Of a stretch of DNA of 42,413 bases, positions 7,681 to 22,680 are shown one piece after another. The first letter of the stretch is position 1; the number at the start of each line of letters is the position of its first letter. Below the pieces are notes generated by a model. It was not told the DNA's origin and ran no database searches. It saw only the letters and a list, made by a program, of their open reading frames with translations. The position numbers and the translations under genes are program-made. The stretch comes from an uncultured Candidatus Saccharibacteria bacterium (lineage in GTDB: Bacteria; Patescibacteriota; Dojkabacteria; SC72), in the NCBI GenBank assembly GCA_964556955.1, contig CAZKXP010000001.1:1-42413 (forward strand), given 5' to 3'.

Positions 7681-7895
7681 GCCAGGCCATGGCCTGGCTT
7701 TGATTCATAGTTTGTTCATAATCACAAAACCTATTACAATGTACAGCCTTCTTGCGTCTCGAATATTTAATAGGTCATTCATTTTCAATATTTTGATGGT
7801 TGGTCTAGTAGAAAAGGGCAGTAGTACAAGGAGATGAGGTGATGAACTAGGTATGAACACAGGCCTGGCTATAGCCTGGCCTGATTGACATATTC
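7681..7895. repeat. Copy A of a 202-bp intergenic repeat bounded by GC-rich palindromes (MITE/PATE-like element or structured regulatory/ncRNA locus)
   Basis: Perfect 18-nt palindrome GCCAGGCCATGGCCTGGC (7681..7698). Near-palindrome AGGCCTGGCTATAGCCTGGCCT (7861..7882). The core aligns collinearly to 23651..23852. Fills the divergent rsmE / 7945-ORF spacer. Confidence 0.75.
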
Positions 7896-7944
7896 CCTAT
7901 TATTTTGTTTGATATATGTAGATAATATATGTAATCTGCTCTGA

Positions 7945-10900
7945 ATGAATATCAAACTACAAAGAGTGTTAAGGACTGTATCTAAGATCATACTTTTAGT
8001 TGTAGTACTGGGTTTTGTAGTATGGGGTGGTTACTATGTATATCTTTCCATAACCAACAAGCCTCAGAATGTAGTTATTACCAATATCACAGATTCTTCA
8101 GCAACTATTACTTGGACTACACAGTCACAGATGAATGGTGTTGTGTATTACAAGGAGAATGAGAAGACAATATTGCCTGGAATATTGGCATTCTTAGGAT
8201 CTAAGGTAGGGTATGATGACAGAGATGCGAGTGATGCTCAGACTGCTTGTGTAGATGAGTTTAACAAGAAGGCGGGGGAAGAGGTAGATGCAGAATTTAA
8301 TGTTAGTGGAGAGGACTTTGATTGTGAGGGTGCGAAGGTTACTGGTATGGGTAAGTACTATACACATAGTGTAACTATGACTAACCTTAAACCAGAGACT
8401 AAGTATTCTTTTGTAGTAGGTGATGGTATATGGAGTTTTAGGAGTGATGTAACTATGGTTACTACTTTTGATACTTTGGAGGAGGTTGATACTCCTATGC
8501 CTGTTTTTGGAAGAATTATTGGAGATGATGATACATACTCTAGAGATTCTTTGGTATATATTACTTTTAGGGATGGTAGTGAGGAACAGGATAGTATTGT
8601 TTACAGTAGTACTGGTAATGATGATGGAGGATGGTATTTAGATGCAGCTACAGCTAGGGATAGTAGTGGGGATGTTTTGGAGTTGGAGTTAACGAATGAT
8701 ACTTTTTTAGTAAAGGGTAGATACAGTAATTATGGAGAGAGTGAGGAAGAGAGATATATCTTAGGTTATTTTAATGGTGCATATCCTGATATTGTTATTG
8801 AAAAATCAACATCAACACAATCTTCTTTATGGAACAAGTTTGTACTTGGGGCGTATGCGCAATCTCGTAAGTCTTCGCTTGAGGTAAAAACGGAAAATAT
8901 TGTTGCAGCCTGTCCAAAATGTGCGACTTCGTTAACTACAAATGAATTATATACCATAGCTTCAGGTGGAACTTTATCTCCGGGTAGGGTTAAGGAAGTT
9001 GGTACTGGAAATATTGCTAAGGCAGTAGCTGCGACTCAAGGGGGGAGTTTCGCCATGAGTGATCTTTCTAAGTTAGGTCTCAGCCAAAATGCAGGGAATA
9101 TGAATGCACTTGTATCTAATACTAGCTATGAGACATTTAAGGTTGGAAGTACTACTCAAACAAATCAGACAATAAAGTATTCTTCTGGTGGGAGTGTTAC
9201 AAGTACAAGCTATACAACATCTTCAACATATGGATCTTCAACTACGACTTGTACAACAGATAGGAATTGTAAGACATTATCCAATTCGTCAGAAGCTCCT
9301 GGAGGATGTGCTTATGGAACAAATGTAGATGGAAGTTGTAAAACAATCGATCTAGGAGATGGTACTGTAATTCAAGAGGATGCGGAACTTTTATCAGGGA
9401 TTGGTTTCATGTATACATGTGTTGCAGATGGAAGTAAGGTTAGTAACCCTAATGATTGTGGTAAAAACGGTTTCGTGTACACATGTGTTGCAGATGGGGG
9501 TAAAGTTAGGGATCCTAATGATTGTGGTAAAAACGGTTATATGTACACATGTGTTGCAAATGGCAAGAAAGTCGTAGATCCTAAGAACTGCCCAAGCGCA
9601 ATGGATAAAGAAGTAAAGGAAGAAAAATGTAGTGTAACCGCAAATTATGATAAAGAAGGAGCTTTGCTGACATGTGGAATGTCTTGTGAGAATGGTAAAT
9701 CCATAGTAGTTGGTTCTACCAAATGTACTTCTGTTGCCCCGAGCGTAGAAAAACAGATAGATCCAAGCGTTGATGGTGCTGCTCAATCCGTAGGAACAGA
9801 TGTGTCAGTATTTTCCGTAGATCCTTGGAAACTAACCTCTGTACAAATTAAGATATTAATAGATGAGTCTCCACAATTACGAGAAGAGGCCACTAATGAG
9901 ATGAACAATATTGAGGCAAAAGAAGGTGCGTGGACTAATTCTGAAAAAAAGTCCTACAGGAATATTTGTAATGCTACAGGGGGGAATCTCTCTGTAGAAG
10001 AGTACAATTCAAAGTGGGAAATAGCTTCTTATACCTGCTCATATGATAATTCCCAAAACTGGATATCTGTTGATAAAGCTTTTGCGGAAGAGTTGTCATC
10101 ATCTGAATTGACGTATGCCTTGTATTTGCCAGAGTATGGTTTATACAGTTTCGAGTTAGGAGATGAATACACAATAACTACGAATTCTGACAGTAGCAAA
10201 TCAACTTATATATTCTACATAGAAGCCAACGGTCAGTCAGGCTTCCAAATGCCAGCTGATCCAGATAATCCAACATCAGAAGAAGACATCATATTGGATT
10301 CTAGTGCATACGAAATAACATACTCACAAGAATCAACAGCCCAACAATATGAAATTGAAAAAGGAATTAACCTACTATCCTTTAACTTTGTACCAGTATC
10401 TCCAGATGACTTAGGAGCATACATGGCATCTGATCTCATAACTCAAGCAGCAAACAATGGAGTAAACATAGAATATATATCAATATTTAGTGGAGGAAGA
10501 TGGTATTCAGGATACTCATGCTCAAGTGGAACATGTACAGGTACAAACTTTAGTATAGTACCAGGTAAAGGATATGTAGTTAAAACAAGTAACAGTGGAA
10601 CTATAACTATCCCAGGATACAACCTAACCTCCTCAGTACCCATACCATTTTCTTCAGGATGGAACCTAGTAGGAGTACATGGATATACTACAGCATATAC
10701 AGCTAGAACCCTCATAGATTCAATCAATACAGTAGAAGGCTTAACAGCTAACAATGTATCATGGTGGCCAACCTCTAAAGGTAAGTATGAAGGATTACAA
10801 TTTGAAAACAATACAGAATATGGGTTAGACTTCTCCATAAGTCCAACCAATGGATACTTTGTAAGAATATCTGACTATGCACCTCAAGACACAACCTGTA

Positions 10901-10959
10901 AATCTTTGCTTTGGAATGTAGGAGGAAGTGCCAATGGGGCTTGTGGTAATACAAAATAA
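7945..10959 (+). CDS. Large membrane-anchored surface protein with an FN3 module, Ser/Thr-rich and Cys-rich regions; function unknown
   Basis: 1004 aa. N-terminal hydrophobic anchor IILLVVVLGFVVWGGYYVYL. ITNITDSSATITWTT ... YYTHSVTMTNLKPETKYSFVVGDG is the FN3 / purple-acid-phosphatase-N-like pattern. Has a 3 x 22-aa Cys repeat. C-terminal duplication: GINLLSF..GKGYVVKTS / GWNLVGV..TNGYFVRIS. Confidence 0.85.
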   Translation: MNIKLQRVLRTVSKIILLVVVLGFVVWGGYYVYLSITNKPQNVVITNITDSSATITWTTQSQMNGVVYYKENEKTILPGILAFLGSKVGYDDRDASDAQTACVDEFNKKAGEEVDAEFNVSGEDFDCEGAKVTGMGKYYTHSVTMTNLKPETKYSFVVGDGIWSFRSDVTMVTTFDTLEEVDTPMPVFGRIIGDDDTYSRDSLVYITFRDGSEEQDSIVYSSTGNDDGGWYLDAATARDSSGDVLELELTNDTFLVKGRYSNYGESEEERYILGYFNGAYPDIVIEKSTSTQSSLWNKFVLGAYAQSRKSSLEVKTENIVAACPKCATSLTTNELYTIASGGTLSPGRVKEVGTGNIAKAVAATQGGSFAMSDLSKLGLSQNAGNMNALVSNTSYETFKVGSTTQTNQTIKYSSGGSVTSTSYTTSSTYGSSTTTCTTDRNCKTLSNSSEAPGGCAYGTNVDGSCKTIDLGDGTVIQEDAELLSGIGFMYTCVADGSKVSNPNDCGKNGFVYTCVADGGKVRDPNDCGKNGYMYTCVANGKKVVDPKNCPSAMDKEVKEEKCSVTANYDKEGALLTCGMSCENGKSIVVGSTKCTSVAPSVEKQIDPSVDGAAQSVGTDVSVFSVDPWKLTSVQIKILIDESPQLREEATNEMNNIEAKEGAWTNSEKKSYRNICNATGGNLSVEEYNSKWEIASYTCSYDNSQNWISVDKAFAEELSSSELTYALYLPEYGLYSFELGDEYTITTNSDSSKSTYIFYIEANGQSGFQMPADPDNPTSEEDIILDSSAYEITYSQESTAQQYEIEKGINLLSFNFVPVSPDDLGAYMASDLITQAANNGVNIEYISIFSGGRWYSGYSCSSGTCTGTNFSIVPGKGYVVKTSNSGTITIPGYNLTSSVPIPFSSGWNLVGVHGYTTAYTARTLIDSINTVEGLTANNVSWWPTSKGKYEGLQFENNTEYGLDFSISPTNGYFVRISDYAPQDTTCKSLLWNVGGSANGACGNTK
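9403..9600 (+). repeat. In-frame tandem repeat, 3 x 66 bp, inside the 1004-aa ORF
   Basis: GFMYTCVADGSKVSNPNDCGKN (9403..9468), GFVYTCVADGGKVRDPNDCGKN (9469..9534), GYMYTCVANGKKVVDPKNCPSA (9535..9600). Two Cys per unit. Confidence 0.9.
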
Positions 10960-10981
10960 TTAAGTTAAAAATATTTTTAAA

Positions 10982-11317
10982 ATGGAAACAATACCACCAA
11001 TATTTTGGATGATAGTAGTGAGTGTATTAACTGTAATGGTCTCTTTAATACTTTATTATGTAGCAATGTTAATAAAGGAAACTAGAACAACAGTTGTTGA
11101 TGCTCGCGAAACAATGAAACAAGCAAATAAAATACTCACACAAGCAGAATTAATAGTGAATGATGTACAAAGTAGCATATCTACCATAAGAGGGACTGTG
11201 GAAGAAATAAATCAAAGTATCTTAGCACCAATAAGGAGATTAGCTAGTGGCGTAATAGCAGTTTCATCTTTCGTAAATGGTTTTAAGAAGAAAAAAGAAG
11301 AGGAAACCGAAGAATAA
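10982..11317 (+). CDS. Small single-pass membrane protein with a coiled-coil tail (DUF948-like)
   Basis: 111 aa. TM segment IFWMIVVSVLTVMVSLILYYVAMLI, then a helical region and a KKKKEEETEE tail. The DUF948 resemblance is from memory of the family pattern. Confidence 0.7.
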   Translation: METIPPIFWMIVVSVLTVMVSLILYYVAMLIKETRTTVVDARETMKQANKILTQAELIVNDVQSSISTIRGTVEEINQSILAPIRRLASGVIAVSSFVNGFKKKKEEETEE

Positions 11318-11356
11318 CATTGTAAATATCGCTATTACTAGCTATTATAGTAATTA

Positions 11357-12919
11357 ATGAAGATTGCCCGCGTACCAACTCAAAAAAGAAATATCATAAT
11401 CATTGTAATACTCCTAGTAGGCCTTCCTCTCTTGGTATATGCATCTATGCAGGTTGTTCAACTCATATCCAATGCTAGTGCGGATACACAACCTCGTAAT
11501 GTAACTATGTCCAATATTACAACAGTATCTGCAACCGTTACTTGGACCACAGATTCAAAGGCAAAAGGTAGTGTTACACTAAAGGAAAATGGCGCAGAAC
11601 TTAGCCCCGTAATAGATACAAGAGGGGATTCAAAAAGATATACTCACTTTATTGAATTAACAGATTTAGAACCTGCTACCACATACACATTCACAATTAC
11701 TTCTGGGAGTACGAATTACACCTCTTCCGGAGAGTCTTCCTTTGTATTTGAAACTGCACCCATAACTGCAGATACACCAACACCAAATCCAATCTACGGA
11801 AATGTAAGCGGGGTATCGGGAGATGATATATTGATATTTGCAATACTAAAAGACAAAACCTCATATGCAGTCTCTGCTACTATGCCAAGTGGTGGAAATT
11901 GGATTATGGATCTATCTACATTCAGAAAAATATCTGATGGATCATTGATAATTTCAGATTCAAATACCAATCTAGTATTAGTTGCAATTACCGGTACGAA
12001 CCAAGGGGCTGTTCTAAACGGCTCGTTCTCGACCCTATTTGATAGTAATGGGAAGTTGAATAGTACACAGATATTCAGCATAGGGACCAATACATCCTTG
12101 TACTCATATTTCCCAACGGGAGGTAGTATAGTAGATGAGACTCCTGTGGTAGAAGAACCGGAAGAAGAGCCAGAAGAAGAGGATACCGATGGAAAAACTT
12201 ATCGTATTGTTAAAGATCTGGAATGGGAAGATATGGTAGTGTCGGGTGTATATTCTTGGCCATATGGAGAAGATACTGTTCGAGTTACTAATCTGACAGA
12301 TACCGGTTTTACAGTAGTATGGGTATCACAAGAGAAAGAACAAGGTAGATTGAACTATGGTACTTCTGCATCTGAGCTTTCTAGTAGTGCAAACGATGAT
12401 AGGGATGGAGTTACAAACCGTGGAGACTACTATGTGCATAGCGTGTCTTTAACTAGATTACAACCAGAGACTAAGTATTACTTCGAGGTAGTTTCTGGAG
12501 AAAATACATACGATGGTTTTGATGCTACAACATTTGCAACTCTTAGTACCCCCCCCTCTTATGTATCTATTACTGGTTCTGTAGACAATATGCCTGATAC
12601 AAATGAAGGTGTTTTGATGGGGTATATACGAGATGTAGATGGTACGGGGACATTAGGAGATTCTCTCCCTATATCTACTTTGTTGGATGACAATGGGGGA
12701 TGGATACTTTCTATCGCAGATAGTAGATCTTCTGATGGAAGCAAGTATTATGAATATACTTCTTCAGATAGTATGTACTTTGAAGTAGTTTCAACTATAC
12801 CTTCCATATATACAACTTCTGTATCTATGAATGGTATTACCAGTAAGGATATTGATATTACTTTAGAGTATAGTACGAGTACTGTGGTTAGGAAGCTATC
12901 AGACTATGGTGTTATTTAA
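11357..12919 (+). CDS. Membrane-anchored protein with two FN3 + beta-rich modules; function unknown
   Basis: 520 aa. Anchor IIIIVILLVGLPLLVYA. FN3-1: NVTMSNITTVSATVTWTT..RYTHFIELTDLEPATTYTFTITSG. FN3-2: VRVTNLTDTGFTVVWVS..YYVHSVSLTRLQPETKYYFEVVSG. Acidic linker EEPEEEPEEED between the modules. Confidence 0.85.
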   Translation: MKIARVPTQKRNIIIIVILLVGLPLLVYASMQVVQLISNASADTQPRNVTMSNITTVSATVTWTTDSKAKGSVTLKENGAELSPVIDTRGDSKRYTHFIELTDLEPATTYTFTITSGSTNYTSSGESSFVFETAPITADTPTPNPIYGNVSGVSGDDILIFAILKDKTSYAVSATMPSGGNWIMDLSTFRKISDGSLIISDSNTNLVLVAITGTNQGAVLNGSFSTLFDSNGKLNSTQIFSIGTNTSLYSYFPTGGSIVDETPVVEEPEEEPEEEDTDGKTYRIVKDLEWEDMVVSGVYSWPYGEDTVRVTNLTDTGFTVVWVSQEKEQGRLNYGTSASELSSSANDDRDGVTNRGDYYVHSVSLTRLQPETKYYFEVVSGENTYDGFDATTFATLSTPPSYVSITGSVDNMPDTNEGVLMGYIRDVDGTGTLGDSLPISTLLDDNGGWILSIADSRSSDGSKYYEYTSSDSMYFEVVSTIPSIYTTSVSMNGITSKDIDITLEYSTSTVVRKLSDYGVI

Positions 12920-12946
12920 TTTGTCGGTAGAAAAGCTTAGAATATT

Positions 12947-12955
12947 TGATATAAT
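12947..12955 (+). promoter_or_regulatory. Possible internal extended -10 promoter element upstream of the 426-aa ORF
   Basis: TGATATAAT (TGn + TATAAT 12950..12955). The -35 is poor (GTAGAA). Followed by one of the few SD-like motifs in the window (GGAG 12957..12960). Confidence 0.3.
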
Positions 12956-12966
12956 CGGAGATTATT

Positions 12967-14247
12967 ATGAATGACCAATATTATCAGAAGAAGAATAACA
13001 AGAAGGCGTTTTTACTACTATTAGTATTGGGGGGTGTAGGGTTTTTAGGATTCAAATTTTCTAATGTAGAGGAAACAGTTGCAGACTTCTCAAAAGATAC
13101 TGAAGAATCTTCGTGTAGTAGTTGTAATGGTATTGTAGATAATAGCTATGAGGATAATGAGGCGGTATTCATTAATCTTCTTGATGAAGAGAGTGATACA
13201 CCGAGTGTGCAGGGTATTGGAACTCTGTTGAAGTGTTTAGAAGCAAAAAACACATATACTGCTGATTCTGCTTGTACTATTCCATTAAGCACAGGAACAG
13301 TAAGCTTACAGGGATGGGTTAGTTCCACTGCAGATATAAAGTTGGTTAGCATGATGGTTCCGATAATACCTCTTTCAGGCAGTTATGAAGTTGAGAGTAA
13401 CATTAGGAAAATTTCGGAGAAGACGGGTAACTATGGTGTCAAACCCGCTGGTGCTCAGTTTGATGATAAACAATGGCGCTACAACGCAACACCTGGTGAG
13501 GGAGTTGAGTCTCTAGGGGAAAGAATCTTGAGTGCAATCCAAAAGAAAGCATTTGGGGTCAAATATACCGTGTCTACAGAAGCCGAAGAGGGGGATGGAG
13601 AGGCGAGTATTTCGGAGTATGCACCTAATAATGGCGGAGAGGAATTTAACAATCCAGAGAATATTAATCCAGATAAATCTAATCGTATTGCAGATTGGCT
13701 GAAAGATATCTATTACGATTATCCTGGGGAGGTAGATGTGGAAGATAATGAATCAATAAAGATTGAAGGAGTTTGTGAAGGTATAGAGGAGGTAGAGATT
13801 GATAGCAATTCGGAAACACAATGTTTCAATGTTTGGAATGCACTTGTGAATACTTTTGGATCATTATTCCCATCTTCGGATTGGGCTAGTTGTAATGCGA
13901 AAGAAGAAGATGGAGGTTGTATAAAATCTGAGGATATCGTTGTAAAAATGAGTCCAATGTTTGAAGAAACGAACAATTTTATGTTGAAAAGAAACAAGAC
14001 AGCGATGGACCCAGAGACTGCATTGTCATATCAGCCACACTATATCATTACGAAATGTACAGCTGATGTCTCTGGAAAGCTTGTTGATGTTAAGTGTCTC
14101 TGGGATATGACATATATATTTGAAGAAAGAAAAGCTGCAGAGTATGATGATGCAGGTGGGTCAGATACACCATCTGAATATAAGTATATTAAGTATCTAA
14201 AAGAGGAGAGTATAAGGCGTACAGATACTTTACCTTATGGCTCGTAA
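12967..14247 (+). CDS. Membrane-anchored acidic, Cys-containing extracytoplasmic protein; function unknown
   Basis: 426 aa. N-terminal KKNNKK followed by hydrophobic AFLLLLVLGGVGFLGFKF. I recognise no family motif. Confidence 0.8.
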   Translation: MNDQYYQKKNNKKAFLLLLVLGGVGFLGFKFSNVEETVADFSKDTEESSCSSCNGIVDNSYEDNEAVFINLLDEESDTPSVQGIGTLLKCLEAKNTYTADSACTIPLSTGTVSLQGWVSSTADIKLVSMMVPIIPLSGSYEVESNIRKISEKTGNYGVKPAGAQFDDKQWRYNATPGEGVESLGERILSAIQKKAFGVKYTVSTEAEEGDGEASISEYAPNNGGEEFNNPENINPDKSNRIADWLKDIYYDYPGEVDVEDNESIKIEGVCEGIEEVEIDSNSETQCFNVWNALVNTFGSLFPSSDWASCNAKEEDGGCIKSEDIVVKMSPMFEETNNFMLKRNKTAMDPETALSYQPHYIITKCTADVSGKLVDVKCLWDMTYIFEERKAAEYDDAGGSDTPSEYKYIKYLKEESIRRTDTLPYGS

Positions 14248-14269
14248 TTTAAATTAAATAAATATTAAT

Positions 14270-15757
14270 ATGAGTTTTGTTGAAAAAGCTTACAATCATG
14301 GATTAAAGGTTGTGAAAATTTTTAATTCAAAAATTTTTCACTTCTTCTTAATATTCTTTGGGGCTTTGGCCTTAATTTTTGGTGTAATGAATGTATATGC
14401 GCAAGAAGAAACATTACGCATCTCTCCTGATTTCCCTGGGAATAAAGCAGTGTATAATACAGCGAGTGGTGTTGATCCAGACCAAGACAATACAACGAGT
14501 TATGGCGGGACCTCTCTATTAAATACCTCTTGGGTTACGGCAATATCACTTGCACCTTCATTGACTGAGGGTGGAGATGCTGTGTTAAACAACGCTGATA
14601 TCCCTAATGATATGAAGTATGGGCTATTAGGAATCACAGATAGTGCATGGGCAGGAATATATAGAAATACTCCAAGCGTAGATTTAATCGCACACTTAGG
14701 AAATGAATGGGTCCCTGGTTATGATGAATCTTCATATGGGACTTATGCAGATGATGGTGCTAATGTAAGTGGTTACCAAAGCCTAATAGACTCGGGTATC
14801 GCACCTCTCTGGACTCAGTTTAGAAATATGTCGTATGTATTCTTAGTAATAATAATGTTGGTTATTGGATTTATGATTATGTTTAGAAGTAAGATAGGAG
14901 GTCAATTGATGGTCTCCGTTGGTAATACAATTCCTAGTGTCATAGTAAGTCTAATCCTAATAACTTTCAGTTTTGCAATTGCAGGATTAATTATTGATAT
15001 TGGAGGGATTTTGGTTTCCCTCTTGTATTCAATATTTGAGCAGAAAAGCATTTCTATTCAAAATTTTGGAGCTTTGTTTGATGTTTTGTTTAGAGGAGTC
15101 TCTGTAACTGATTATTTTGAAGTGGTAGGTAATGATTTTACGAATGCTTTCAATGGCTTCTCAACAAGTATTGGATCAGGCTTATTGTTATGGATGAAGG
15201 CTGTCTTCCAAACAACAGTCTTTGGAGTTGTTGGTATGATTATGTTTGTGGTAGGGCTTGGTGTTGTTGCTGTAGGCGCAATAAAACTACTTATAGTTTT
15301 GTATAAGACATATTTTGAATTAATTCTAAATGTAATACTTGCTCCATTTAAAATTTTAATGGGTACAATCCCAGGCAAGGATGTTGTAAGAACAAACTGG
15401 ATTACAAGTTTGATGAGAAATGTCCTCATATTCCCAATGGTGTATTTTATTGTAAATATTCCAATATATTTATCTTCAGTTCTAGGAGAAGACAATGTTG
15501 TACTTGGATTTCCATCTAAATTAACTGGCGCAAATCTAGGAGATACAGGATTGGACATATCTACAGGAGAAGGGTATATAGGGTTATTGATAAATTTCGT
15601 ACTAAGAGTGTTCGTTTTGTATTATGCAGCACAAGCACCTAAGTTTGCTGAAGCAATCATTCCTCCTTTGGAAGTTAATAAGGCAGCTGCAGATGCAATG
15701 GCAAATGCGAAGATGAGTCTATCAAAAGCACCATTTGTAGGAGGATTGTTTAAATAG
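14270..15757 (+). CDS. Polytopic integral membrane protein with signal peptide and about 150-aa extracytoplasmic N-domain; function unknown
   Basis: 495 aa. FFLIFFGALALIFGVMNVYAQEE looks like a cleavable signal. At least five or six long hydrophobic segments from about residue 190 (e.g. YVFLVIIMLVIGFMIMF, VIVSLILITFSFAIAGLIIDIGGILVSLLY, VFGVVGMIMFVVGLGVVAVGAIKLLIVL). Confidence 0.85.
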   Translation: MSFVEKAYNHGLKVVKIFNSKIFHFFLIFFGALALIFGVMNVYAQEETLRISPDFPGNKAVYNTASGVDPDQDNTTSYGGTSLLNTSWVTAISLAPSLTEGGDAVLNNADIPNDMKYGLLGITDSAWAGIYRNTPSVDLIAHLGNEWVPGYDESSYGTYADDGANVSGYQSLIDSGIAPLWTQFRNMSYVFLVIIMLVIGFMIMFRSKIGGQLMVSVGNTIPSVIVSLILITFSFAIAGLIIDIGGILVSLLYSIFEQKSISIQNFGALFDVLFRGVSVTDYFEVVGNDFTNAFNGFSTSIGSGLLLWMKAVFQTTVFGVVGMIMFVVGLGVVAVGAIKLLIVLYKTYFELILNVILAPFKILMGTIPGKDVVRTNWITSLMRNVLIFPMVYFIVNIPIYLSSVLGEDNVVLGFPSKLTGANLGDTGLDISTGEGYIGLLINFVLRVFVLYYAAQAPKFAEAIIPPLEVNKAAADAMANAKMSLSKAPFVGGLFK

Positions 15758-15777
15758 ATAAATTGCTAATGTAATCT

Positions 15778-18468
15778 ATGGCAGGTGGAAAGAAATCACA
15801 AAATGAGGATGAAGTTTTAGGTCAAATATTTGATTTCATATTCAAGGAAGCAAGGAAAAGACCAGATAAAAGGAAACCTGTTAAATCTACAGGGGTATCT
15901 ACTTCTGGAGCATTGGCAGATGGTATTGCTGCTGCTCTTGAAAAGCCAGGACTTTTTGTTACAGATCAATCTCTTCAAGTTCTTAATGATGCTTTGACTG
16001 TTGAGTTTGCAAGAATAAATGCGGATGAAACAGGTGATATAAAGGCGAAGTTCACAACTACCAGTTTGATAGATTTTTTAAAAGATCCAGATGCATTTTT
16101 GAGTAAACCCAAAGCTGCATCCAGAAAAGCAATTCGGGACTATATGAAGGCAGGATTCTTAGGAAGAGTACATCAACAATTGCAAGCCAATGCATGGGCT
16201 CAAAGGTATAATCTCGATCTTGATGCAAAGAAGGCGATCCGAGGTAACTTTATGGCGAGGGAGATAGAGGAAAAGGAGGCTGCAAGAGCATTCTCCACTT
16301 ATGCGGGGATGCAAATTAGTACTGCAGATTTAAACTCTAGAAAAAATTATATTATTAGTAGAAGCTGTGATCTTGTGGGAAGAGAAATATTGGGAAGGAA
16401 TGGCTGGGAGAACATGAGCGAAAATAAGAAATTAGATTTCCAAAAATATTTGATAAGAGGCAAAGTAAAGGAATATTTCAGAGATACATACAATATTGAT
16501 GTAGAAAAAAAGCTTGAAGATCGTGATCCTCGTGATAGATTCGCGTACAAAGCTTGGGATAGATATGCATCACTCATGAATACTCCCATTGAAAAGAAAA
16601 AGAACACTCCTGCAAAGAGTACGATAGGGAAGAGTGGTTTGTGGGATGTCTCGTCGTATCAGACATTAGAGATGCGAAATATTAATAGCCGTATTGAAGA
16701 AATGCAAATATACCTTCGTGCTCATCCGAACCTTAGTCCAGACGAGAGAGCGAATATAGAACTTGGTATTGAGCAACTAGGGCAGACGGGAGTTTTATTA
16801 TCAGGGAACTTAGCTGGTGAGAATCAAGATATTTTCAGGGCGAAAAAAGCGATTTATGAAAAAATAAATATGTATAAAGGAGAATTGAATGCTGCAAGGA
16901 AAGTAGGAGACAAAGAGAAAGAAAAAGCAATTAGATATAAGATAAATGAGCTTAAAAAGGGAGATAGAGAACTCAACACAATGCGTTTTTGGGGTGCAAT
17001 TGGTAGGATAGATGGGACCTTAGCATCTCTCAAGGCAACTTTTGGCGAAAATGGAGAAAATGTAATAACAAGCGTTCTAGATGGCTCTTTTTATGATGCT
17101 AACACGAACTCTTTTGCTTTACCATCTGATTTAACAGATTTTGAATTTGCAAAAAAATCGAAAGTTAAGATACTTACTGCAAAATTGAAAGACGATAACG
17201 GAGAGGAAATAAAAGGCTTAAACAGATTATACAACTCAATGATGACAAATATATATTACCTAACTCCAAAGTCAATTATGAAAACGCTTTTCGTAAATGG
17301 AGAAGGCTTTATGTATTTAGCATACAAAAAAGCAGGGAAAAGTATGAATGATTTGGAAAAACTAGGTTTAGATTGGGGGCTATTGGCGAAAGGTGACAAA
17401 GCCCATCTCGCCTTCCTTAATACTAAAGGCTTTTCAGAATCACAACTAAAGGGGATGGTATCTTTTACAAAATTAGGAAATATCTTCTCTTTTGCGCAAA
17501 GGCAGAGAGATAAAGTAAAGGCTTGGATGGATGAGCATGTATTTAAGAAGCTTAGGCAGAAGCTTTATGATAGTTTAGTGAAGCGAATTGTTAATAAGGA
17601 GGCGTTAGCCTTGCTAGAGCAGTGGTTGCTAAAGGGAGGTTTCCAAGTATTAGCGAAATCTCTTGTAACGAGTCTCCTTACAGCTCTCGGTATAGGTGTC
17701 ACAGGTGGCTTAGGTTATTTCATTGCACCAATATTAAGTGCTCTTGTAACAGATATCCTCTATGATACTGCTAAATTTCTAATCCAGTTTGTTATGATCA
17801 TCTCCGTTGGCATTGTTGGTTTGATGATCTTCCTATCAAGCTCCTCCCAAAAAAGATTCGATTCCCAAGCCTATGCATATACATACTATGTCCCTGGAGA
17901 AGTGGAATATAATCCAAACTTTGTAGGTATATCTCCCATAATCGGAGAAGACGATGATCATAACATTGGAGATTTTGTAGCAGGTTCTTTACCAGATGGT
18001 GAGAAATGTTTACTCGGAGCAGGATCATTTAACTGTACACAAGGACCATATGGAAGCTACTCTCACGATAATGTTGCAGCAGTAGATATCACAGGTACGG
18101 ATTCCTTCTATGCACCAACTTTTTGTGGTAATGATAACTGTGTAGTAACATACTCTGGAAGTGCACATTGTACCAATGGCTATGCTGGAGGAATGGTAAA
18201 ATTCAAAGCAACATATGGTGGTAGTACATATGAATTTACATTAATACATGTCAGTACCACCTATGGAGTAGGGACTAAACTCTCTGCTGGTCAAAAAGTT
18301 GCAAGAGTAATGACAATACAAGAAACTACACACGCATGTTCATCTGGAGAACACCTCCACCTACAAACAAAATTAAACGGCTCTGTTGTTGATCCTCAGG
18401 ATGTATTGAAAAATAGTACCTCTAGTGGAGGTTTTGGTTGTAACCTCGGAGCATGCCCAGCTAAATAA
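15778..18468 (+). CDS. 896-aa protein: about 620-aa Lys-rich helical N-terminal region without signal peptide, TM cluster, C-terminal M23/LytM-like peptidase domain
   Basis: Hydrophobic cluster about residues 620-688 (SLVTSLLTALGIGVTGGLGYFIAPILSALV, FLIQFVMIISVGIVGLMIFLSS). C-terminus LSAGQKVARV...SSGEHLHLQTKLNGSVVDPQDVL matches the M23 HxH block (HLH = nt 18352..18360). The upstream SHDNVAAVD is only an approximate HxxxD. Confidence 0.8.
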   Translation: MAGGKKSQNEDEVLGQIFDFIFKEARKRPDKRKPVKSTGVSTSGALADGIAAALEKPGLFVTDQSLQVLNDALTVEFARINADETGDIKAKFTTTSLIDFLKDPDAFLSKPKAASRKAIRDYMKAGFLGRVHQQLQANAWAQRYNLDLDAKKAIRGNFMAREIEEKEAARAFSTYAGMQISTADLNSRKNYIISRSCDLVGREILGRNGWENMSENKKLDFQKYLIRGKVKEYFRDTYNIDVEKKLEDRDPRDRFAYKAWDRYASLMNTPIEKKKNTPAKSTIGKSGLWDVSSYQTLEMRNINSRIEEMQIYLRAHPNLSPDERANIELGIEQLGQTGVLLSGNLAGENQDIFRAKKAIYEKINMYKGELNAARKVGDKEKEKAIRYKINELKKGDRELNTMRFWGAIGRIDGTLASLKATFGENGENVITSVLDGSFYDANTNSFALPSDLTDFEFAKKSKVKILTAKLKDDNGEEIKGLNRLYNSMMTNIYYLTPKSIMKTLFVNGEGFMYLAYKKAGKSMNDLEKLGLDWGLLAKGDKAHLAFLNTKGFSESQLKGMVSFTKLGNIFSFAQRQRDKVKAWMDEHVFKKLRQKLYDSLVKRIVNKEALALLEQWLLKGGFQVLAKSLVTSLLTALGIGVTGGLGYFIAPILSALVTDILYDTAKFLIQFVMIISVGIVGLMIFLSSSSQKRFDSQAYAYTYYVPGEVEYNPNFVGISPIIGEDDDHNIGDFVAGSLPDGEKCLLGAGSFNCTQGPYGSYSHDNVAAVDITGTDSFYAPTFCGNDNCVVTYSGSAHCTNGYAGGMVKFKATYGGSTYEFTLIHVSTTYGVGTKLSAGQKVARVMTIQETTHACSSGEHLHLQTKLNGSVVDPQDVLKNSTSSGGFGCNLGACPAK

Positions 18469-18488
18469 TTTATACAAAATGATTATCT

Positions 18489-19460
18489 ATGGAAAAAAAG
18501 AAAATACTGTTGGTAGGGATAATCATAATAGTAGCAATAGTAACAGCTGTAGCTATATATTTCATAATTAAAAATCAAAACAAAGATACCTCAACAAATA
18601 CAGTACAACAAGAATCCCTAAGTTTTTCAAATCAAAAGATCGAATTAGGTGATGTGAATGTAAAAGAAAAAGAAGCCTTGATATACACAATCTCTTCTTC
18701 TGTCTCTTTGTCAAAAGTAGAAAGTTTTGTAAAAAACACAGATCCTGAAATGAAGATTGGGACCCAAGAAGAAGGAAACTACTACAGATGGAAAAACGGC
18801 GAAGATTCAGTAATTTACACATTAGATCAAAACTACTTAATATTTAACTTTACCGAAGGCATACCTTGGAATGAAAGCTCGTTGACAGCATACTCTTTTA
18901 CGCAGTTCGTAGAAAAATACTTTGAAAAGCAATGGACATACACGCTTACACATAGCCAGAAGGGTGACTCTGGGGAGACAATATACTATGCCACTAGGAA
19001 AATTGGCGATGTAAATATGGAAACGGTCTTCGATAGGCAACAGACAGATTATCTTGCGATGAAGAATGGTGAAGTAATATATGGGAAGATATTGCTTGTT
19101 GATATACTTGACGATCCCAAAGTGCTACCTTTAATATCAACAAGTTTACTTGAAGATTACATCAACCTTTCTACATACCCCAAAGAAATATATCCCATAT
19201 ATGGCTCTACCCAAAGTACAATCCTCTCGGAGATAGATTACAAAAGTGAAGAATTTGAAGATATTGCAAATACTCTTTCAAACTGCAAAAGCAACTCTGC
19301 AAGCCTAGCCTATCTCTACAAGCGTATGGACCAGGGAGATCTAACCCCTGTGTATAAACTAGATCTAACATGCGAGATTACCTATCAAAAAACACAATAT
19401 GATATCCCTGCCATAGGGTATATTAATGCGATAGATCCTGAATATATATCCACGGAGTAA
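18489..19460 (+). CDS. Membrane-anchored extracytoplasmic protein; function unknown
   Basis: 323 aa. N-terminal anchor ILLVGIIIIVAIVTAVAIYFII. No recognisable motif. Confidence 0.8.
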   Translation: MEKKKILLVGIIIIVAIVTAVAIYFIIKNQNKDTSTNTVQQESLSFSNQKIELGDVNVKEKEALIYTISSSVSLSKVESFVKNTDPEMKIGTQEEGNYYRWKNGEDSVIYTLDQNYLIFNFTEGIPWNESSLTAYSFTQFVEKYFEKQWTYTLTHSQKGDSGETIYYATRKIGDVNMETVFDRQQTDYLAMKNGEVIYGKILLVDILDDPKVLPLISTSLLEDYINLSTYPKEIYPIYGSTQSTILSEIDYKSEEFEDIANTLSNCKSNSASLAYLYKRMDQGDLTPVYKLDLTCEITYQKTQYDIPAIGYINAIDPEYISTE

Positions 19461-19483
19461 ATATCTGTGCTACAATCATTTGT

Positions 19484-20656
19484 ATGAAAACAGCCCTCAA
19501 ATTAATAGTATTTGCATTAATATGTTTCTTCCCTTACGAGGTATTTGCATACACCATAAATACAATATCAGACCAGAATTTTGACACATCAATCTCTGAT
19601 CAAACCAACGTAGAATACAAGACACCCAATGTAATATACATATCCCAGATAACCACTAGCTCTCCACAACTATCGGACAATCCATCTCTTTGGGTCAAGA
19701 CTCTCTACTACTACAGCATTACTAGATTACATTTTGCAGATATCCCATTCAACTTCCTTGTAGATAGTAGTGGGAAAATATATGAAGGTAAAAGTGGAGG
19801 CATAGGGGCGAACCCAGAAATAGAAAATGACACAGGAAGTATATTAATTGGATATCTCTCTAACAATCCAATACTCTCCAATAGAGCATCATCAACAATA
19901 TACGAATTAGTAGATACCATCTCTTCGCAATACGGTATACAAAGTATCCAAGCAAAAAGCCTTAAAATATCCTCACCAGAAGGACAACTTGCAAAATTCC
20001 AGGTATCTGATGCCGCAGGAGATTTTAACCAATCAGTATCGGAAATATTCCAAGATTGGCAAGGATATACGACAAGTAATCTCTCCTACAAAGCCAAAAT
20101 CGAGGATGTTGCCTACGAACCAGAAGTAAGTATCGGCTCACGATTACACATCTCTGTAAAAGTAACAAACATGAATGATTTTGCATGGCTAACTGATGTA
20201 CATCCAATATATATATCTACAGCAGATGGTAATGATTCAGGTTTTGCAATCAATGGAGTATGGGATAGTTTTAGCAAACCAACCCATATTGAAAACAAGG
20301 CTGTAAAACCAGGAGAGAGTGTAACATTAGAATTTGATCTCTTCGCGAGGACTACCCCTGGAGAAGCAGCGCAGAGTTTTGTTCTTGCTAGAAACAATGA
20401 AACCATATTTGCTGATTCTTCCTTCGAATTAAAATTTAATATTGTTAAGGGCGACAAAACATTGGTACAGGTAGCCTCATCTGAATATGGTTTTGCAAAT
20501 ATTAGAAATTGCCAATGGTATAGTTGTAAAATATTAGATAGCGTAGATAACGGAACAGTATTCATATTGTTAAGTGAAGAGAATGGATGGATGCAGATAC
20601 AGTACAGCGAAGATACTGTCGGATGGGTATTCTCTAGGTATATGAAGAAGATATAA
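19484..20656 (+). CDS. Secreted cell-wall-binding protein: amidase_2/PGRP-like (apparently degenerate) + Ig-like + SH3b
   Basis: 390 aa. Signal peptide MKTALKLIVFALICFFPYEVFAYT. DIPFNFLVDSSGKIYEGKSGG...GSILIGYLSNN resembles the amidase_2 core, but no His/Cys zinc-ligand motifs are seen. C-terminal GFANIRN..VDNGTVFILLSEENGWMQIQYSEDTVGWVFSRYM is SH3b-like. Confidence 0.75.
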   Translation: MKTALKLIVFALICFFPYEVFAYTINTISDQNFDTSISDQTNVEYKTPNVIYISQITTSSPQLSDNPSLWVKTLYYYSITRLHFADIPFNFLVDSSGKIYEGKSGGIGANPEIENDTGSILIGYLSNNPILSNRASSTIYELVDTISSQYGIQSIQAKSLKISSPEGQLAKFQVSDAAGDFNQSVSEIFQDWQGYTTSNLSYKAKIEDVAYEPEVSIGSRLHISVKVTNMNDFAWLTDVHPIYISTADGNDSGFAINGVWDSFSKPTHIENKAVKPGESVTLEFDLFARTTPGEAAQSFVLARNNETIFADSSFELKFNIVKGDKTLVQVASSEYGFANIRNCQWYSCKILDSVDNGTVFILLSEENGWMQIQYSEDTVGWVFSRYMKKI

Positions 20657-20673: not shown

Positions 20674-22680
20674 ATGACAAAAGATCTAATTCTTGGGGGA
20701 TTAAACCCAGAACAAAAAAAAGCCGTAGAATGCACAGAAGGACCCCTTCTAGTTTTTGCAGGAGCAGGCTCAGGCAAGACAAGGGTCATAACAAATCGAA
20801 TAGCATACTTAATCAGTAAGAAAGAAATTCTTCCTGACAATATCATGGCGGTAACATTTACCAAAAAAGCCGCAGGAGAGATGCAAGAAAGAATAAAAAC
20901 ACTCTTAGGAGAATTGGGTCTCAATATAGCAGAACTTCCAACTGTTGGAACATTCCACTCGATAGGGGCACTCTTTCTTAGACAAAATGCAAAAGCACTT
21001 GGGTACACAAACAATTTCTCAATATATGATTCTGACGATAGTGAAAACCTCATAAAAGAGCTAATGCTTGAAAGACAGATAGATATTAAGCAGATAAAGC
21101 CACAGGCAGTATCATATTTCATAGGTTCTGCAAAAAACGAAATGATATCTCCAGAGAATTTCCCTCAACACTATGGTGGATATATCGAGGACATTGTAGC
21201 TGATATATATCCTGAATATCAAAAACAATTAAAAGTCCAAAACTCCATGGATTTTGGAGACCTCTTGTATCTAGCAGTAAAAATGTTGGAAGAGAATGAA
21301 GATATTAGGAAAAGATACCAAGAAAGATACAGATACCTATTAATCGATGAATACCAAGATACCAATAACGCACAATACAAATTTGCGAAATTACTCTCTG
21401 AAAAACATCAAAACATCTGTGTAGTGGGAGATGATGATCAAGGAATATATGCATGGAGAGGAGCGGATATAAAAAATATTCAGTCATTTGAAGACGATTT
21501 TAAAAATGTAACAGTCATAAAACTAGAACAAAACTATCGTTCTACAAAAAATGTAATATCTGCTGCTGTTTCTGTAATTCAACAAAACAATCAAAGAGTA
21601 CAAAAGAAACTCTGGACAGATAATTCTGATGGTGAAAATATAACAGTATATCAGGCAAGAGACCAAGAAGATGAAGCTGACTACGTGGTTAGTAAGGTAC
21701 AACATCTTAAAGATATGAGAATACCATTATCAAACATAGCTATACTGTACAGAACCAACTATCAATCTCGTGCGATTGAAGAAGCCTTACTAAAAGAAGG
21801 AGTACCATACCGATTGGTCGGAGGTTTTAGATTCTACGAAAGAAAAGAGATTAAAGATATCATAAGCTATCTTCGCTTCATATATAATCTCAAGGATGAG
21901 CTAAGTATTGATAGAGTTCTTAATGTCCCAGCAAGGAAAGTAGGACCCAAAACAGTTGCACTTTTGCATGAGTTAGCCAAAAGTACAGATTCTACTGTCG
22001 GAGAATTTTTGGTTTCTGCATATCTTTCTCAACATCCAGAAACAGAGAGACCTGAAAGTATTAGGTCCTCAATCTTAGAGAAAGTAGCTACCAAAAAAGA
22101 TGAGTATGGCAAATTCCTCAACCTCATATCTACCTTTGGATATATATACACACAAGCACAAGGGAAAAACATTCTCGATATCATAGATATGATACTTGAG
22201 AAGACTAGCTATATTAGAATGTTTGATGATGGATCTGATCAATCAGAGATGAAGAAGGAGAATATTACAGAATTAAAAAATGTAGCATATACATATGTCC
22301 AAAAAAGTCCAGAAAATAGCCTTGAAACATTTTTAAATGAGATAAACCTAATAGAGCAAGAACAAGACAAGAATCAGGATGGAAGCGGTATGTATGTAAA
22401 TTTGATGACGCTACATTCCTCTAAGGGACTGGAATTTGATTATGTCTTTATGATTGGTGTTGAGGAGGGACTCCTGCCACACTCACGTGCTTTTGTTGAT
22501 GAAAAGGAGTTGGAGGAGGAAAGGCGGCTCTGCTATGTGGGTATTACTAGGGCTAAGCAGAAATTGACTCTCACTTTTGCTGAGAAAAGGATGACAAGGG
22601 AAGGATTTAGTTCTCAAATACCCTCGAGATTTTTAGGAGAGATTCCACAAGAGATCTGTGAATATTTTAGCGGAGTGTAG
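20674..22680 (+). CDS. UvrD/PcrA-type ATP-dependent DNA helicase
   Basis: 668 aa. SF1 motifs AGAGSGKTRV, LIDEYQDTN, VVGDDDQGIYAWRGA, EQNYRS, TLHSSKGLEFD, CYVGITRAK. Starts 17 nt after the preceding ORF. Confidence 0.92.
   Translation: MTKDLILGGLNPEQKKAVECTEGPLLVFAGAGSGKTRVITNRIAYLISKKEILPDNIMAVTFTKKAAGEMQERIKTLLGELGLNIAELPTVGTFHSIGALFLRQNAKALGYTNNFSIYDSDDSENLIKELMLERQIDIKQIKPQAVSYFIGSAKNEMISPENFPQHYGGYIEDIVADIYPEYQKQLKVQNSMDFGDLLYLAVKMLEENEDIRKRYQERYRYLLIDEYQDTNNAQYKFAKLLSEKHQNICVVGDDDQGIYAWRGADIKNIQSFEDDFKNVTVIKLEQNYRSTKNVISAAVSVIQQNNQRVQKKLWTDNSDGENITVYQARDQEDEADYVVSKVQHLKDMRIPLSNIAILYRTNYQSRAIEEALLKEGVPYRLVGGFRFYERKEIKDIISYLRFIYNLKDELSIDRVLNVPARKVGPKTVALLHELAKSTDSTVGEFLVSAYLSQHPETERPESIRSSILEKVATKKDEYGKFLNLISTFGYIYTQAQGKNILDIIDMILEKTSYIRMFDDGSDQSEMKKENITELKNVAYTYVQKSPENSLETFLNEINLIEQEQDKNQDGSGMYVNLMTLHSSKGLEFDYVFMIGVEEGLLPHSRAFVDEKELEEERRLCYVGITRAKQKLTLTFAEKRMTREGFSSQIPSRFLGEIPQEICEYFSGV

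Follow-up and report, generated by a model that had tools for sequence, protein, structure and literature searches.

An eight-gene envelope operon of Dojkabacteria with a VirB6/TrbL-family protein and a possible origin in type IV secretion

What kind of machine can be built from eight membrane-anchored or secreted proteins, two of which resemble cell-wall enzymes, without an ATPase among them? The question is posed by an operon, O1–O8, in a 42,413-nucleotide window (the whole stretch of DNA analysed), which comprises eight co-directional + strand ORFs at 7945–20656 (Table 1). From O1 to O8 the intergenic gaps are 22, 39, 47, 22, 20, 20 and 23 nt, in agreement with the tight spacing (20–47 nt) given in a preliminary description of this DNA, and a Kyte–Doolittle scan recovered the N-terminal hydrophobic segments that it had assigned to seven of the eight proteins, the internal transmembrane (TM) cluster of the 896-aa protein and the polytopic character of the 495-aa protein. 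None of the eight contains an LPxTG motif and, again as proposed, none has a credible P-loop: the three Walker-A-like strings (positions 279 and 515 of O6 and 97 of O8) are not conserved among orthologues and are therefore chance matches. The absence of an ATPase was likewise confirmed for the operon and for the 10 kb around it in ~80 loci. Among related loci with at least three of the operon genes, the order O2–O8 was colinear between rsmB-rsmE and pcrA in 73 of 73, so that these genes have not come together by chance. Relatives carrying the operon belong to Dojkabacteria/WS6 (Patescibacteria), and its conservation throughout that lineage supports the earlier suggestion that this reduced genome, of the Patescibacteria type, encodes an apparatus dedicated to the envelope.

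Table 1 Position and basis of assignment of the operon genes and adjoining features
Feature	Description	Position	Strand	Basis
Conserved upstream stretch		7885..7944	+	Just 5' of O1
O1	N-anchored surface protein, 1004 aa	7945..10959	+	Pfam PF16656 2e-10, fn3; TM 7-37
O2	Bitopic DUF948-like protein, 111 aa	10982..11317	+	N-terminal TM and helical tail
O3	N-anchored protein, 520 aa	11357..12919	+	Pfam PF16656 3e-19, fn3 8e-11
O4	N-anchored Cys-rich ectodomain protein, 426 aa	12967..14247	+	TM 13-34
O5	VirB6/TrbL-family polytopic membrane protein, 495 aa	14270..15757	+	AF2/Foldseek, Pfam TrbL, profile search
O6	Tripartite protein, 896 aa	15778..18468	+	TM cluster, Cys distribution, M23 in orthologues
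O7	N-anchored protein, 323 aa	18489..19460	+	YycI/YycH-like two-domain ectodomain, AF2 and Foldseek
O8	Secreted wall-binding protein, 390 aa	19484..20656	+	Signal-like N-terminus; PGRP-like and SH3b
pcrA	pcrA/uvrD-type helicase	20674..22680	+	Pfam UvrD-helicase 3e-94; NCBIfam pcrA 4e-229, a score under that model's curated cut-off

O5 belongs to a Patescibacteria VirB6/TrbL family. A signal or anchor leads into a helical ectodomain of ~130 aa; the TM helices, five or six in number, carry the motifs GFMIMFR and TFSFAIAG. When its AF2 model (pLDDT 67) was compared with the PDB by Foldseek, the top four matches were R388 TrwI/VirB6 (prob 0.92–0.99, E 0.02–0.15, TM 0.27–0.43); a profile search of PDB sequences returned no match. 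Pfam TrbL matched the paralogue P0240 as well as 2 of 31 orthologues (6e-5). The family extends to 3782 representatives in a profile search, and distant members in other Patescibacteria adjoin VirB2-like pilin arrays (T4SS_pilin), PrgI and TraC-like VirB4. The leading TrwI/VirB6 matches, the occasional TrbL matches and these type IV secretion system (T4SS) gene neighbourhoods together provide moderate evidence for a VirB6 identity. O5 shares with R388 TrwI and Agrobacterium VirB6, its best structural match, a polytopic architecture and an N-terminal extracytoplasmic helical domain; however, the match is moderate, and VirB5, VirB3 and VirB4 do not neighbour O5. O5 and O6 are adjacent in every locus spanning both, and a second VirB6-like/O6-like pair adjoins dnaA in Dojkabacteria, a duplicate of the pair beside the replication origin, where the protein encoded 3' of the VirB6 paralogues is homologous to the N-terminal domain of O6 (hhalign 97.4%, E 1e-11).

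Patescibacteria (CPR) possess T4SSs related to MPF-FATA (Quinonero-Coronel et al. 2025, PMC12102498), represented in Southlakia epibionticum by the cluster SEML1_0006-0019 (Wang et al. 2023, PMC10633639). Their layout comprises VirB2-like pilin arrays, PrgI and a TraC-like VirB4 (PMC12102498, PMC10633639), and the genes often lie near dnaA (PMC12102498), as does the Dojkabacteria paralogous pair. The operon resembles these systems in its VirB6-like protein, which is of the same family and has the common motif GF[ML]IMFR, and in being chromosomal, free of a relaxase and associated with peptidase/lysozyme genes. Unlike them, it has no VirB4, TrsD, PrgI or pilin inside or nearby, and O2, O3, O4, O7, O8 and the O6 N-domain have no detectable counterpart in three canonical clusters, a lack that, for O4, the O6 N-domain and the FN3 proteins, counts against a T4SS reading. 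VirB3/PrgI, VirB4, a VirB2-like pilin, a coupling protein and a relaxase were absent from the operon, from the 10 kb around it in ~80 loci and from the surroundings of the origin-proximal paralogues. In the annotation of Enterococcus pCF10, which encodes a Gram-positive conjugative T4SS, the prgA–prgL genes follow a comparable functional order: surface adhesins, then membrane proteins that are small or bitopic, next a VirB6-like protein, PrgK (an anchored multi-domain wall hydrolase of ~870 aa) and finally a bitopic protein. PrgK carries LytM, SLT and CHAP domains. In pCF10, however, PrgI (VirB3) and PrgJ (VirB4) come after the VirB6-like gene and before the hydrolase, a relaxase and a coupling protein are encoded, the adhesins are of the LPXTG type, and hhalign detected no sequence similarity between the operon proteins and the Prg proteins, the O5–PrgH comparison included.

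Of the two cell-wall enzyme-like modules recognised previously, the M23-like one of O6 keeps its catalytic motifs and the amidase_2-like one of O8 does not. O6 consists of a Cys-poor cytoplasmic helical domain (residues 1 to ~620), three TM helices (624–691) and a Cys-rich extracellular M23-like metallopeptidase (~740–896). The M23 signal lies below the Pfam cut-off in the window protein and was matched by 24 of 25 orthologues; H763, D770, H859 and H861 (His/Asp/HxH) and eight Cys are invariant, and weak M23 matches were obtained in the PDB. An HExxH domain takes the place of the M23 ectodomain in ~20 relatives, and one protein (L030) has an added CHAP domain; the M23-like and HExxH ectodomains are unrelated to each other. 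O8 combines a degenerate PGRP/amidase_2-like domain with an Ig-like middle and a C-terminal SH3b domain (profile against PDB, SH3b 1e-8 and PGRP-SD 5e-5; Pfam SH3_3 6e-8). Its first 175 residues contain no conserved His, so that the amidase_2-like domain is not an enzyme module, and we classify O8 as a non-catalytic PGRP-like/SH3b protein.

A confident AF2 model of O7 (pLDDT 90.4, pTM 0.81) matched YycI (2o3o, 4e-8; 5coz, 6e-8) and YycH (4e-5 and 8e-4) in Foldseek. No VirB8-type structure appeared in the top 50; O7 is thus YycI/YycH-like rather than VirB8-like, and the proposed VirB8/TcpC-like partner is not confirmed. As in Bacillus YycH/YycI (WalH/WalI, the WalK regulators), an N-terminal TM segment precedes a two-domain ectodomain (prob 1.0), and a link to the control of wall hydrolysis is shared, at a sequence identity of only 10–14%. 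In contrast to YycH/YycI, O7 has no histidine kinase in its operon or in the window and covaries with a peptidase ectodomain rather than with a kinase: its two deep subtypes, which are mutually homologous (hhalign 99.4%), follow the type of O6 ectodomain almost perfectly (36/1 against 1/16, counts that ignore kinship), suggesting that O7 is likely the cognate partner of the O6 ectodomain.

The remaining members are surface or small membrane proteins. FN3/Pur_ac_phosph_N domains in O1 and O3 bear out the earlier report of two FN3-module proteins. In O1, the N-terminal FN3/Pur_ac_phosph_N region is followed by a middle rich in Ser/Thr and Cys, with three YTCVADG repeats at 490–556, and by a conserved C-terminal domain of ~300 aa; conservation elsewhere is limited to about residues 710–1004. 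Within the operon, O1 is the gene that varies, missing in one sub-clade and duplicated in L046 and L078. O3, present in 67 loci at a median identity of 42%, contains two FN3 modules (45–127 and 309–383), and its PDB matches are to generic FN3 only. The DUF948-like character ascribed to O2 (62 loci) also holds, weakly in the window protein (E 0.047) and in 27 of 30 orthologues (best 2e-5). O4 has seven invariant Cys and one nearly invariant Cys; Pfam and PDB searches, profile search included, gave no match and no recognisable family, and O4 is not related to O7.

On balance, we think it probable that the operon specifies that portion of a T4SS-derived envelope machine, ancestral to Dojkabacteria, which spans membrane and wall. 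It resembles a piece, either split off or put to a new use, of the secretion machinery with which ultra-small bacteria of this kind are believed to act on host cells. A T4SS channel module had been put forward as an alternative and is the best supported of those offered, its VirB6-like (O5) and anchored wall hydrolase (O6) components standing and its VirB8/TcpC-like component falling with the O7 model. VirB6 oligomerises into a membrane platform in R388, and in Gram-positive T4SSs the local cutting of cross-links falls to VirB1/PrgK hydrolases. By analogy with R388 VirB6, O5 would oligomerise into such a platform, onto which O6 would dock to cut peptide cross-links locally, a hydrolase role supported by the invariant M23 motifs and by the swapping of ectodomains among M23, HExxH and added CHAP forms. 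At the outer face of the membrane, O7 would bind the O6 peptidase and gate its activity; the co-variation of O6 and O7 types and the homology of the O7 subtypes support this interaction. O8 may tether the complex to peptidoglycan, with O2 and O4 as putative structural accessories, and O3 and O1 could extend outwards from the cell for contact or adhesion, much like PrgB/PrgC, whose genes precede the T4SS genes of pCF10. The T4SS would be a split one if a VirB4 from another locus supplied the energy; alternatively, the module may by now be ATPase-independent. The fixed chromosomal position throughout the lineage and the reported presence of VirB4 in two Dojkabacteria assemblies (Table S1 of PMC12102498) also support the T4SS-derived reading.

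A rather unlikely competitor is a housekeeping complex for peptidoglycan remodelling and wall homeostasis that takes no part in secretion, in which O7 would control O6, O8 would be a wall-binding cofactor and O5 a scaffold merely sharing the VirB6 fold. In Bacillus, YycH and YycI adjust the activity of wall hydrolases by way of WalK, and the high-confidence YycI/YycH match of O7, the O6/O7 co-variation, the predicted non-catalytic wall binding of O8, the lineage-wide position among core genes, the lack of a nearby ATPase and a conserved G5-domain wall protein encoded just downstream all suit this explanation. It accounts less well for the occurrence of the O5 family in T4SS clusters of other Patescibacteria, and large variable FN3 surface proteins together with an exchangeable lytic ectodomain are more usual in a contact or secretion system than in the growth machinery; moreover, the window lacks a WalK-type kinase, and the operon has no divisome or elongasome gene. 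We consider quite improbable a surface organelle assembled from T4SS parts and independent of any ATPase, in which a VirB6/O6 conduit or anchor would bear FN3 fibres, attach to the wall of a host and digest it locally. In its favour, neither VirB6-type locus has an ATPase within 10 kb on any contig examined, the VirB6/O6 pair is duplicated, O1 is variable and at times duplicated, and there are two or three types of lytic ectodomain. Nevertheless, we know of no precedent for a VirB6 protein functioning without VirB4, and the host wall as the target of the peptidase is a proposal. The reported presence of VirB4 in at least two Dojkabacteria assemblies also speaks against it.

That the operon is a decayed prophage tail/lysis module, as once suggested, or what is left of an integrated conjugative element is extremely improbable and largely refuted: O6 recalls a tape-measure/tail-lysin layout (long helical region, TM, M23) with a weak M23-region match to Gordonia phage lysin A, a Bro-N gene with a strong PHROG match lies 2 kb upstream and the block is flanked by a 215-nt repeat in two copies, but the eight proteins have no PHROG structural or packaging match, relatives of O5 or O6 are absent from 2.9 million viral contigs and those of O5 from plasmids, there is no integrase, the repeat is missing in most relatives, GC and skew cannot be told apart from those of the flanks, and an identical chromosomal position throughout the lineage at 30–70% protein divergence indicates vertical inheritance.

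Genes for translation and RNA processing surround the operon and a helicase gene lies 17 nt downstream, a setting that would also fit a housekeeping wall function. The helicase gene, pcrA, directly follows O8 in every locus extending that far, and is a housekeeping neighbour outside the apparatus; given the short gap and the absence of a terminator-like site between the two genes in a simple scan, it is probably co-transcribed with the operon. At the other end, ~40–50 nt of the stretch 5' of O1 are 85–90% identical in L002, L003, L007, L008 and L047 and probably correspond to the promoter or 5' UTR of the operon.

The eight ORFs O1–O8, present with the sizes first assigned to them, run in close succession into the helicase gene pcrA (see table). 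A hydropathy scan bore out their membrane-anchored or secreted character: seven of the eight products have an N-terminal hydrophobic segment, O6 has an internal cluster at residues 624–691, and O5 contains multiple transmembrane (TM) segments. The reported lack of ATPase, pilin and sortase signals also held, as no protein of the operon contains a conserved Walker A motif or matches an ATPase family, none matches PrgI, TrbC or T4SS_pilin, and LPxTG is missing from O1–O8. Three strings with a Walker A pattern vary among orthologues and were rejected as chance matches. Upstream lie core genes (nusA, infB, rpsO, pnp, a Bro-N gene, rsmB and rsmE); downstream, pcrA (PcrA/UvrD helicase) is followed by an opposite-strand gene for a G5-domain protein and by a gene for a TPR protein, then by fusA and, judged by position, a putative ribosomal protein gene cluster. 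The GC content and skew of the operon were not distinct from those of its flanks in the window. A promoter and terminator consensus scan returned fewer sites than in shuffles, and Rfam gave no match over the whole window. The 25 nt before each of the eight start codons are AT-rich with no obvious GGAGG-like Shine–Dalgarno sequence, a partial GGAG before O4 being the sole exception in the operon spacers.

Coordinates, sizes and spacing of the operon genes and neighbouring features (positions in the window unless a locus is named)
Feature	Position	Strand	Size	Gap to next gene
Bro-N gene	5082-5876	-	264 aa	
~215-nt repeat, first copy	7681-7895	+		
Operon O1–O8	7945-20656	+		
O1		+	1004 aa	22 nt
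O2		+	111 aa	39 nt
O3		+	520 aa	47 nt
O4		+	426 aa	22 nt
O5		+	495 aa	20 nt
O6		+	896 aa	20 nt
O7		+	323 aa	23 nt
O8		+	390 aa	17 nt
pcrA	20674-22680	+		
G5-domain protein gene	22684-23643	-		
~215-nt repeat, second copy	23651-23866	+		
~215-nt repeat in relative L006	L006 15518-15730	-		
YtxH-family protein gene in L090	L090 9062-9523		small	

Comparison across genomes revealed that this arrangement is general. A scan with one genome per species returned 474 stretches encoding an O5 relative, with homologue names that include candidate division WS6 and Candidatus Dojkabacteria; in the best 80 of these 474 loci, the order was rsmB–rsmE, (O1) O2 O3 O4 O5 O6 O7 O8, pcrA, G5, TPR wherever contigs reached. 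O2 to pcrA were colinear in 73 of 73 loci holding at least three of the genes, and in 50 of 54 loci O6 and O8 were separated by an N-anchored ORF of 332–350 aa. Median identity to the window was 28–46% for the operon proteins versus 70% for PcrA. The colinear order across loci and the divergence of the proteins establish that the operon is old, vertically inherited and lineage-wide, and not the chance juxtaposition considered in the preliminary description. O1 is its variable member: one sub-clade lacks it and has O2 directly after rsmE, others have it in duplicate, and in the rest only its last ~300 residues are conserved.

Window O5 itself had no Pfam match, its profile had no significant match among PDB sequences, and tblastn against 72,556 plasmids found no match. 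Pfam TrbL/VirB6 was matched by 2 of 31 O5 orthologues (E 6e-5) and by P0240, an O5 paralogue, and the four best PDB matches of the O5 AlphaFold model (pLDDT 67) were R388 TrwI/VirB6 chains (Foldseek probability 0.92–0.99). Searching 1.84 billion representatives with the O5 profile yielded 3782 proteins at E ≤1e-3 and 1265 at E ≤1e-30, a family far too large for one class alone. Three distant members (loci L082, L085 and L090) are encoded on GC-richer contigs directly downstream of T4SS_pilin/TrbC arrays, one of them with PrgI and a TraC-like VirB4 a few kb away, which is the layout described for Patescibacteria T4SSs (PMC12102498, PMC10633639). Together, the TrbL matches, the structural matches, the family size and the T4SS context of distant members argue with moderate confidence that O5 is a VirB6-family protein. 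In the canonical loci, a ~1160–1190-aa protein precedes the VirB6-like gene, with a signal-like N-terminus in L085 and a faint SLT_3 match in L090; the L090 YtxH-family gene also precedes the VirB6-like gene and recalls the DUF948-like O2. In L082 and L085 the pilin array begins with a sigma-70/ECF gene.

O5 has no TrsD, VirB3/PrgI or VirB2-like pilin array near it, in contrast to the pilin arrays next to its distant relatives in L082, L085 and L090. No VirB4-family ATPase was found in the operon, and within 10 kb of it only rsmB/rsmE and pcrA/G5/TPR were present (~80 loci); VirB3/PrgI, pilin, coupling protein and relaxase genes were likewise missing from the operon and from the 10 kb around it. 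A second VirB6-type locus lies at the replication origin, beside dnaA, in Dojkabacteria (L083, L084, L086, L088, L089 and L091), where dnaN–dnaA and rpmH–rnpA–yidD–yidC–jag–Wzy_C are accompanied by a Cys-rich, anchored 233-aa protein, then one or two VirB6-like paralogues of 593–878 aa sharing the motifs GFMIMFR and VTFSFAISG with O5 (one annotated as Candidatus Dojkabacteria), and an O6N-like protein of 660–770 aa whose single TM segment lies close to the C-terminus and which lacks a hydrolase domain. Over its N-terminal ~200 residues, this last protein shares homology with the O6 N-domain (hhalign 97.4%, E 1e-11). The co-occurrence of a VirB6-like paralogue and an O6N homologue at dnaA makes the VirB6-like/O6-like pair a conserved, duplicated unit. 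Here too, VirB4, VirB3/PrgI, pilin, coupling protein and relaxase genes were absent within 10 kb, including on the far side of dnaA/dnaN. Profiles of O6 and the O6N-like protein were unrelated to the large proteins of the canonical T4SS loci L085 and L090 (hhalign).

O6 begins with ~620 Cys-poor, charged residues without a signal, followed by three TM segments and a Cys-rich C-terminal domain. Of 25 orthologues, 24 match Peptidase_M23 in this ectodomain, in which His, Asp and HxH do not vary; the first motif reads S-H-x6-9-[IV]-D rather than HxxxD. Window O6 scored 24.4 against the M23 Pfam model (gathering threshold 28.7) and matched M23 structures in the PDB at E 0.002–0.02, and the orthologue in L030 has an added CHAP domain. 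O6 would thereby supply the membrane-anchored peptidoglycan hydrolase of Gram-positive-type T4SSs (the VirB1/PrgK/CwlT role), although its domain is M23-like whereas SLT plus CHAP/NlpC is usual for those hydrolases. In ~20 relatives, the M23 domain is swapped for an unrelated Cys-rich domain comprising the C-terminal 220 aa, in which an invariant HExxH and a conserved acidic motif 12–16 residues after it form a zincin-like signature; E-W-G-A-D is a conserved motif of the domain, and five of its Cys are invariant (listed in L006, L007, L010, L019, L020, L023, L027, L033, L034, L042, L046, L057, L060, L064, L068 and L076). This domain had no significant PDB or Pfam match and may represent an undescribed zincin-like extracellular peptidase family.

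The type of O6 ectodomain predicts the type of its neighbour. The gene after an M23-type O6 was recognisably a window-type O7 in 36 of 37 loci, and the gene after a non-M23 O6 was not recognisable as such in 16 of 17, 13 of which had a 332–350-aa anchored protein in the O7 position. These anchored proteins are deep O7 homologues (hhalign 99.4%, E 1e-21, 16% identity). The co-variation (Fisher p ~1e-11 without phylogeny correction), with type switches in several sub-clades, is read as evidence that the O7 and O6 ectodomains interact directly. The O7 model (pLDDT 90.4, pTM 0.81) best matched YycI, an uncharacterised Eubacterium protein and YycH, suggesting a YycH/YycI fold and topology in which an N-terminal TM helix precedes a YycI-type ectodomain. 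Its profile had no significant match among PDB sequences, and no VirB8, TraM, TcpC or PrgL structure appeared in the Foldseek top 50; hhalign of O4 and O7 against PrgL, PrgD and Tn916 Orf13, single-sequence targets of low sensitivity, gave probabilities <3%. The genes annotated in the window include no histidine kinase, placing the YycI/YycH fold in a kinase-less setting there.

O1 and O3 carry FN3/Pur_ac_phosph_N modules on an anchor. Among O2 orthologues, 27 of 30 match DUF948 (PF06103) at E below 0.1 (best 2e-5; window O2 14.3 bits, gathering threshold 37.2) and one of 30 has a weak T4SS_pilin match. O4 has a conserved cysteine set, and no relative with a known function could be detected; a profile search of PDB sequences returned nothing significant, and comparisons with O7 and with the 233-aa origin-proximal protein found them unrelated. 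O8 combines a PGRP/amidase_2-like domain (profile similarity to PGRPs, E 5e-5), an Ig-like region and an SH3b domain; a His-rich column is missing from its first 175 residues, and His is nowhere invariant in the protein. Since the His among the Zn ligands (His, His, Cys/Asp) on which amidase activity depends is not conserved, O8 is predicted to be a PGRP-like wall binder and not an amidase; of the two cell-wall enzyme-like modules initially described, M23-like O6 retains its H/D/HxH residues, but O8 does not qualify.

The function order of the operon parallels prgA–prgL of pCF10 minus PrgI and PrgJ, but the proteins have no detectable sequence similarity; hhalign of O2–O8 profiles with pCF10 PrgD–M, PcfA and Tn916 Orf13/14, again low-sensitivity single-sequence targets, stayed <3% throughout. 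From the T4SS channel module offered as an alternative in the preliminary description, a VirB6-like protein (O5) and an anchored M23-like hydrolase (O6) survive, but the VirB8-like partner does not, as O7 matches YycI/YycH. The best-supported reading is that the operon encodes a T4SS-derived membrane and wall module. O5 would form the membrane platform; O6, a candidate VirB6 partner, would bring local wall-cutting activity to it; and O7 would act as keeper of that activity, making O7 and the O6 ectodomain a candidate keeper/enzyme pair backed by co-variation. O8 would tether the module to the wall, O2 and O4 would be accessories, and O3 and O1 would be surface contact elements and are candidate host-contact proteins. 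Such a module would either use a distant VirB4 or work without any ATPase; VirB4 is listed for two Dojkabacteria assemblies in the available portion of a published survey (PMC12102498).

The main rival reading, a housekeeping wall-remodelling complex, is suggested by the YycI-like fold of O7, the core-gene surroundings and the absence of an ATPase, and has to be weighed against the VirB6 affinities of O5. We consider it unlikely that Dojkabacteria possess an undescribed ATPase-independent envelope organelle, built from T4SS parts with FN3 fibres and a regulated, exchangeable zinc peptidase, that serves contact-dependent wall breaching and not secretion. In that organelle, a VirB6-like platform would be joined to the lineage-specific O6, a pair that has undergone duplication within the genome; contact with the partner cell would be made by FN3 fibres, and an M23 or HExxH peptidase, in each case under a dedicated YycI-like keeper, would breach that cell's wall or the bacterium's own. 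A phage or ICE remnant, including the phage tail/lysis module entertained earlier, is not supported, as a PHROG scan gave only weak O6 peptidase matches and sub-threshold spanin/holin-type matches to O2, phage lysins were matched by the O6 M23 domain only, and scans of IMG/VR viral contigs with the O5 and O6 alignments brought up no relative.

A large fraction of uncultured bacteria are Patescibacteria. In the one member amenable to genetics, epibiotic growth requires the T4SS genes, yet the cargo of the system and its route across two cell walls are unknown (PMC10633639, PMC12102498). Under the T4SS-derived reading, one whole class would keep its VirB6 component apart from ATPase genes; its fixed partners would instead be a wall peptidase under regulation, a protein that binds the wall, and surface proteins that vary. 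Patescibacteria T4SSs and their VirB6 homologues are already published (PMC12102498, PMC10633639); in this literature we found no description of an ATPase-less class-wide operon, the O6 family, a peptidase of two types whose YycI-like partner covaries with it, or a duplicated VirB6/O6 unit.

Several features of the flanks and of sequence labels were also observed. A ~215-nt repeat with GC-rich ~20-nt terminal inverted repeats occurs in two directly oriented copies (73% identity, E 3e-28) in divergent intergenic regions bracketing O1–O8, pcrA and the G5 gene. One inverted copy is present in the close relative L006, palindrome remnants in another relative, and the other loci lack it. RNAalifold predicted a long terminal stem (-46 kcal/mol) and Rfam had no match; a structured RNA and a MITE-like element are both possible identities of the repeat. 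Many MAGs in which the operon and its synteny are of the Dojkabacteria type bear the title 'uncultured Candidatus Saccharibacteria bacterium' (L001, L002, L006–L008 and others) and a few Gammaproteobacteria, Clostridia, Prolixibacteraceae, Nomurabacteria or Microgenomates; the taxon labels are probably placeholders or mistaken, or the contigs were mis-binned. The Bro-N protein, encoded between pnp and rsmB, matches phrog_15286 over its full length (E 2e-116) in an otherwise housekeeping stretch, identifying a phage-type gene in a reduced genome. The anchored G5-domain protein is syntenic downstream of pcrA in nearly all loci, and its C-terminal third, by eye, could be a wall-lytic (Rpf/transglycosylase-like) domain.
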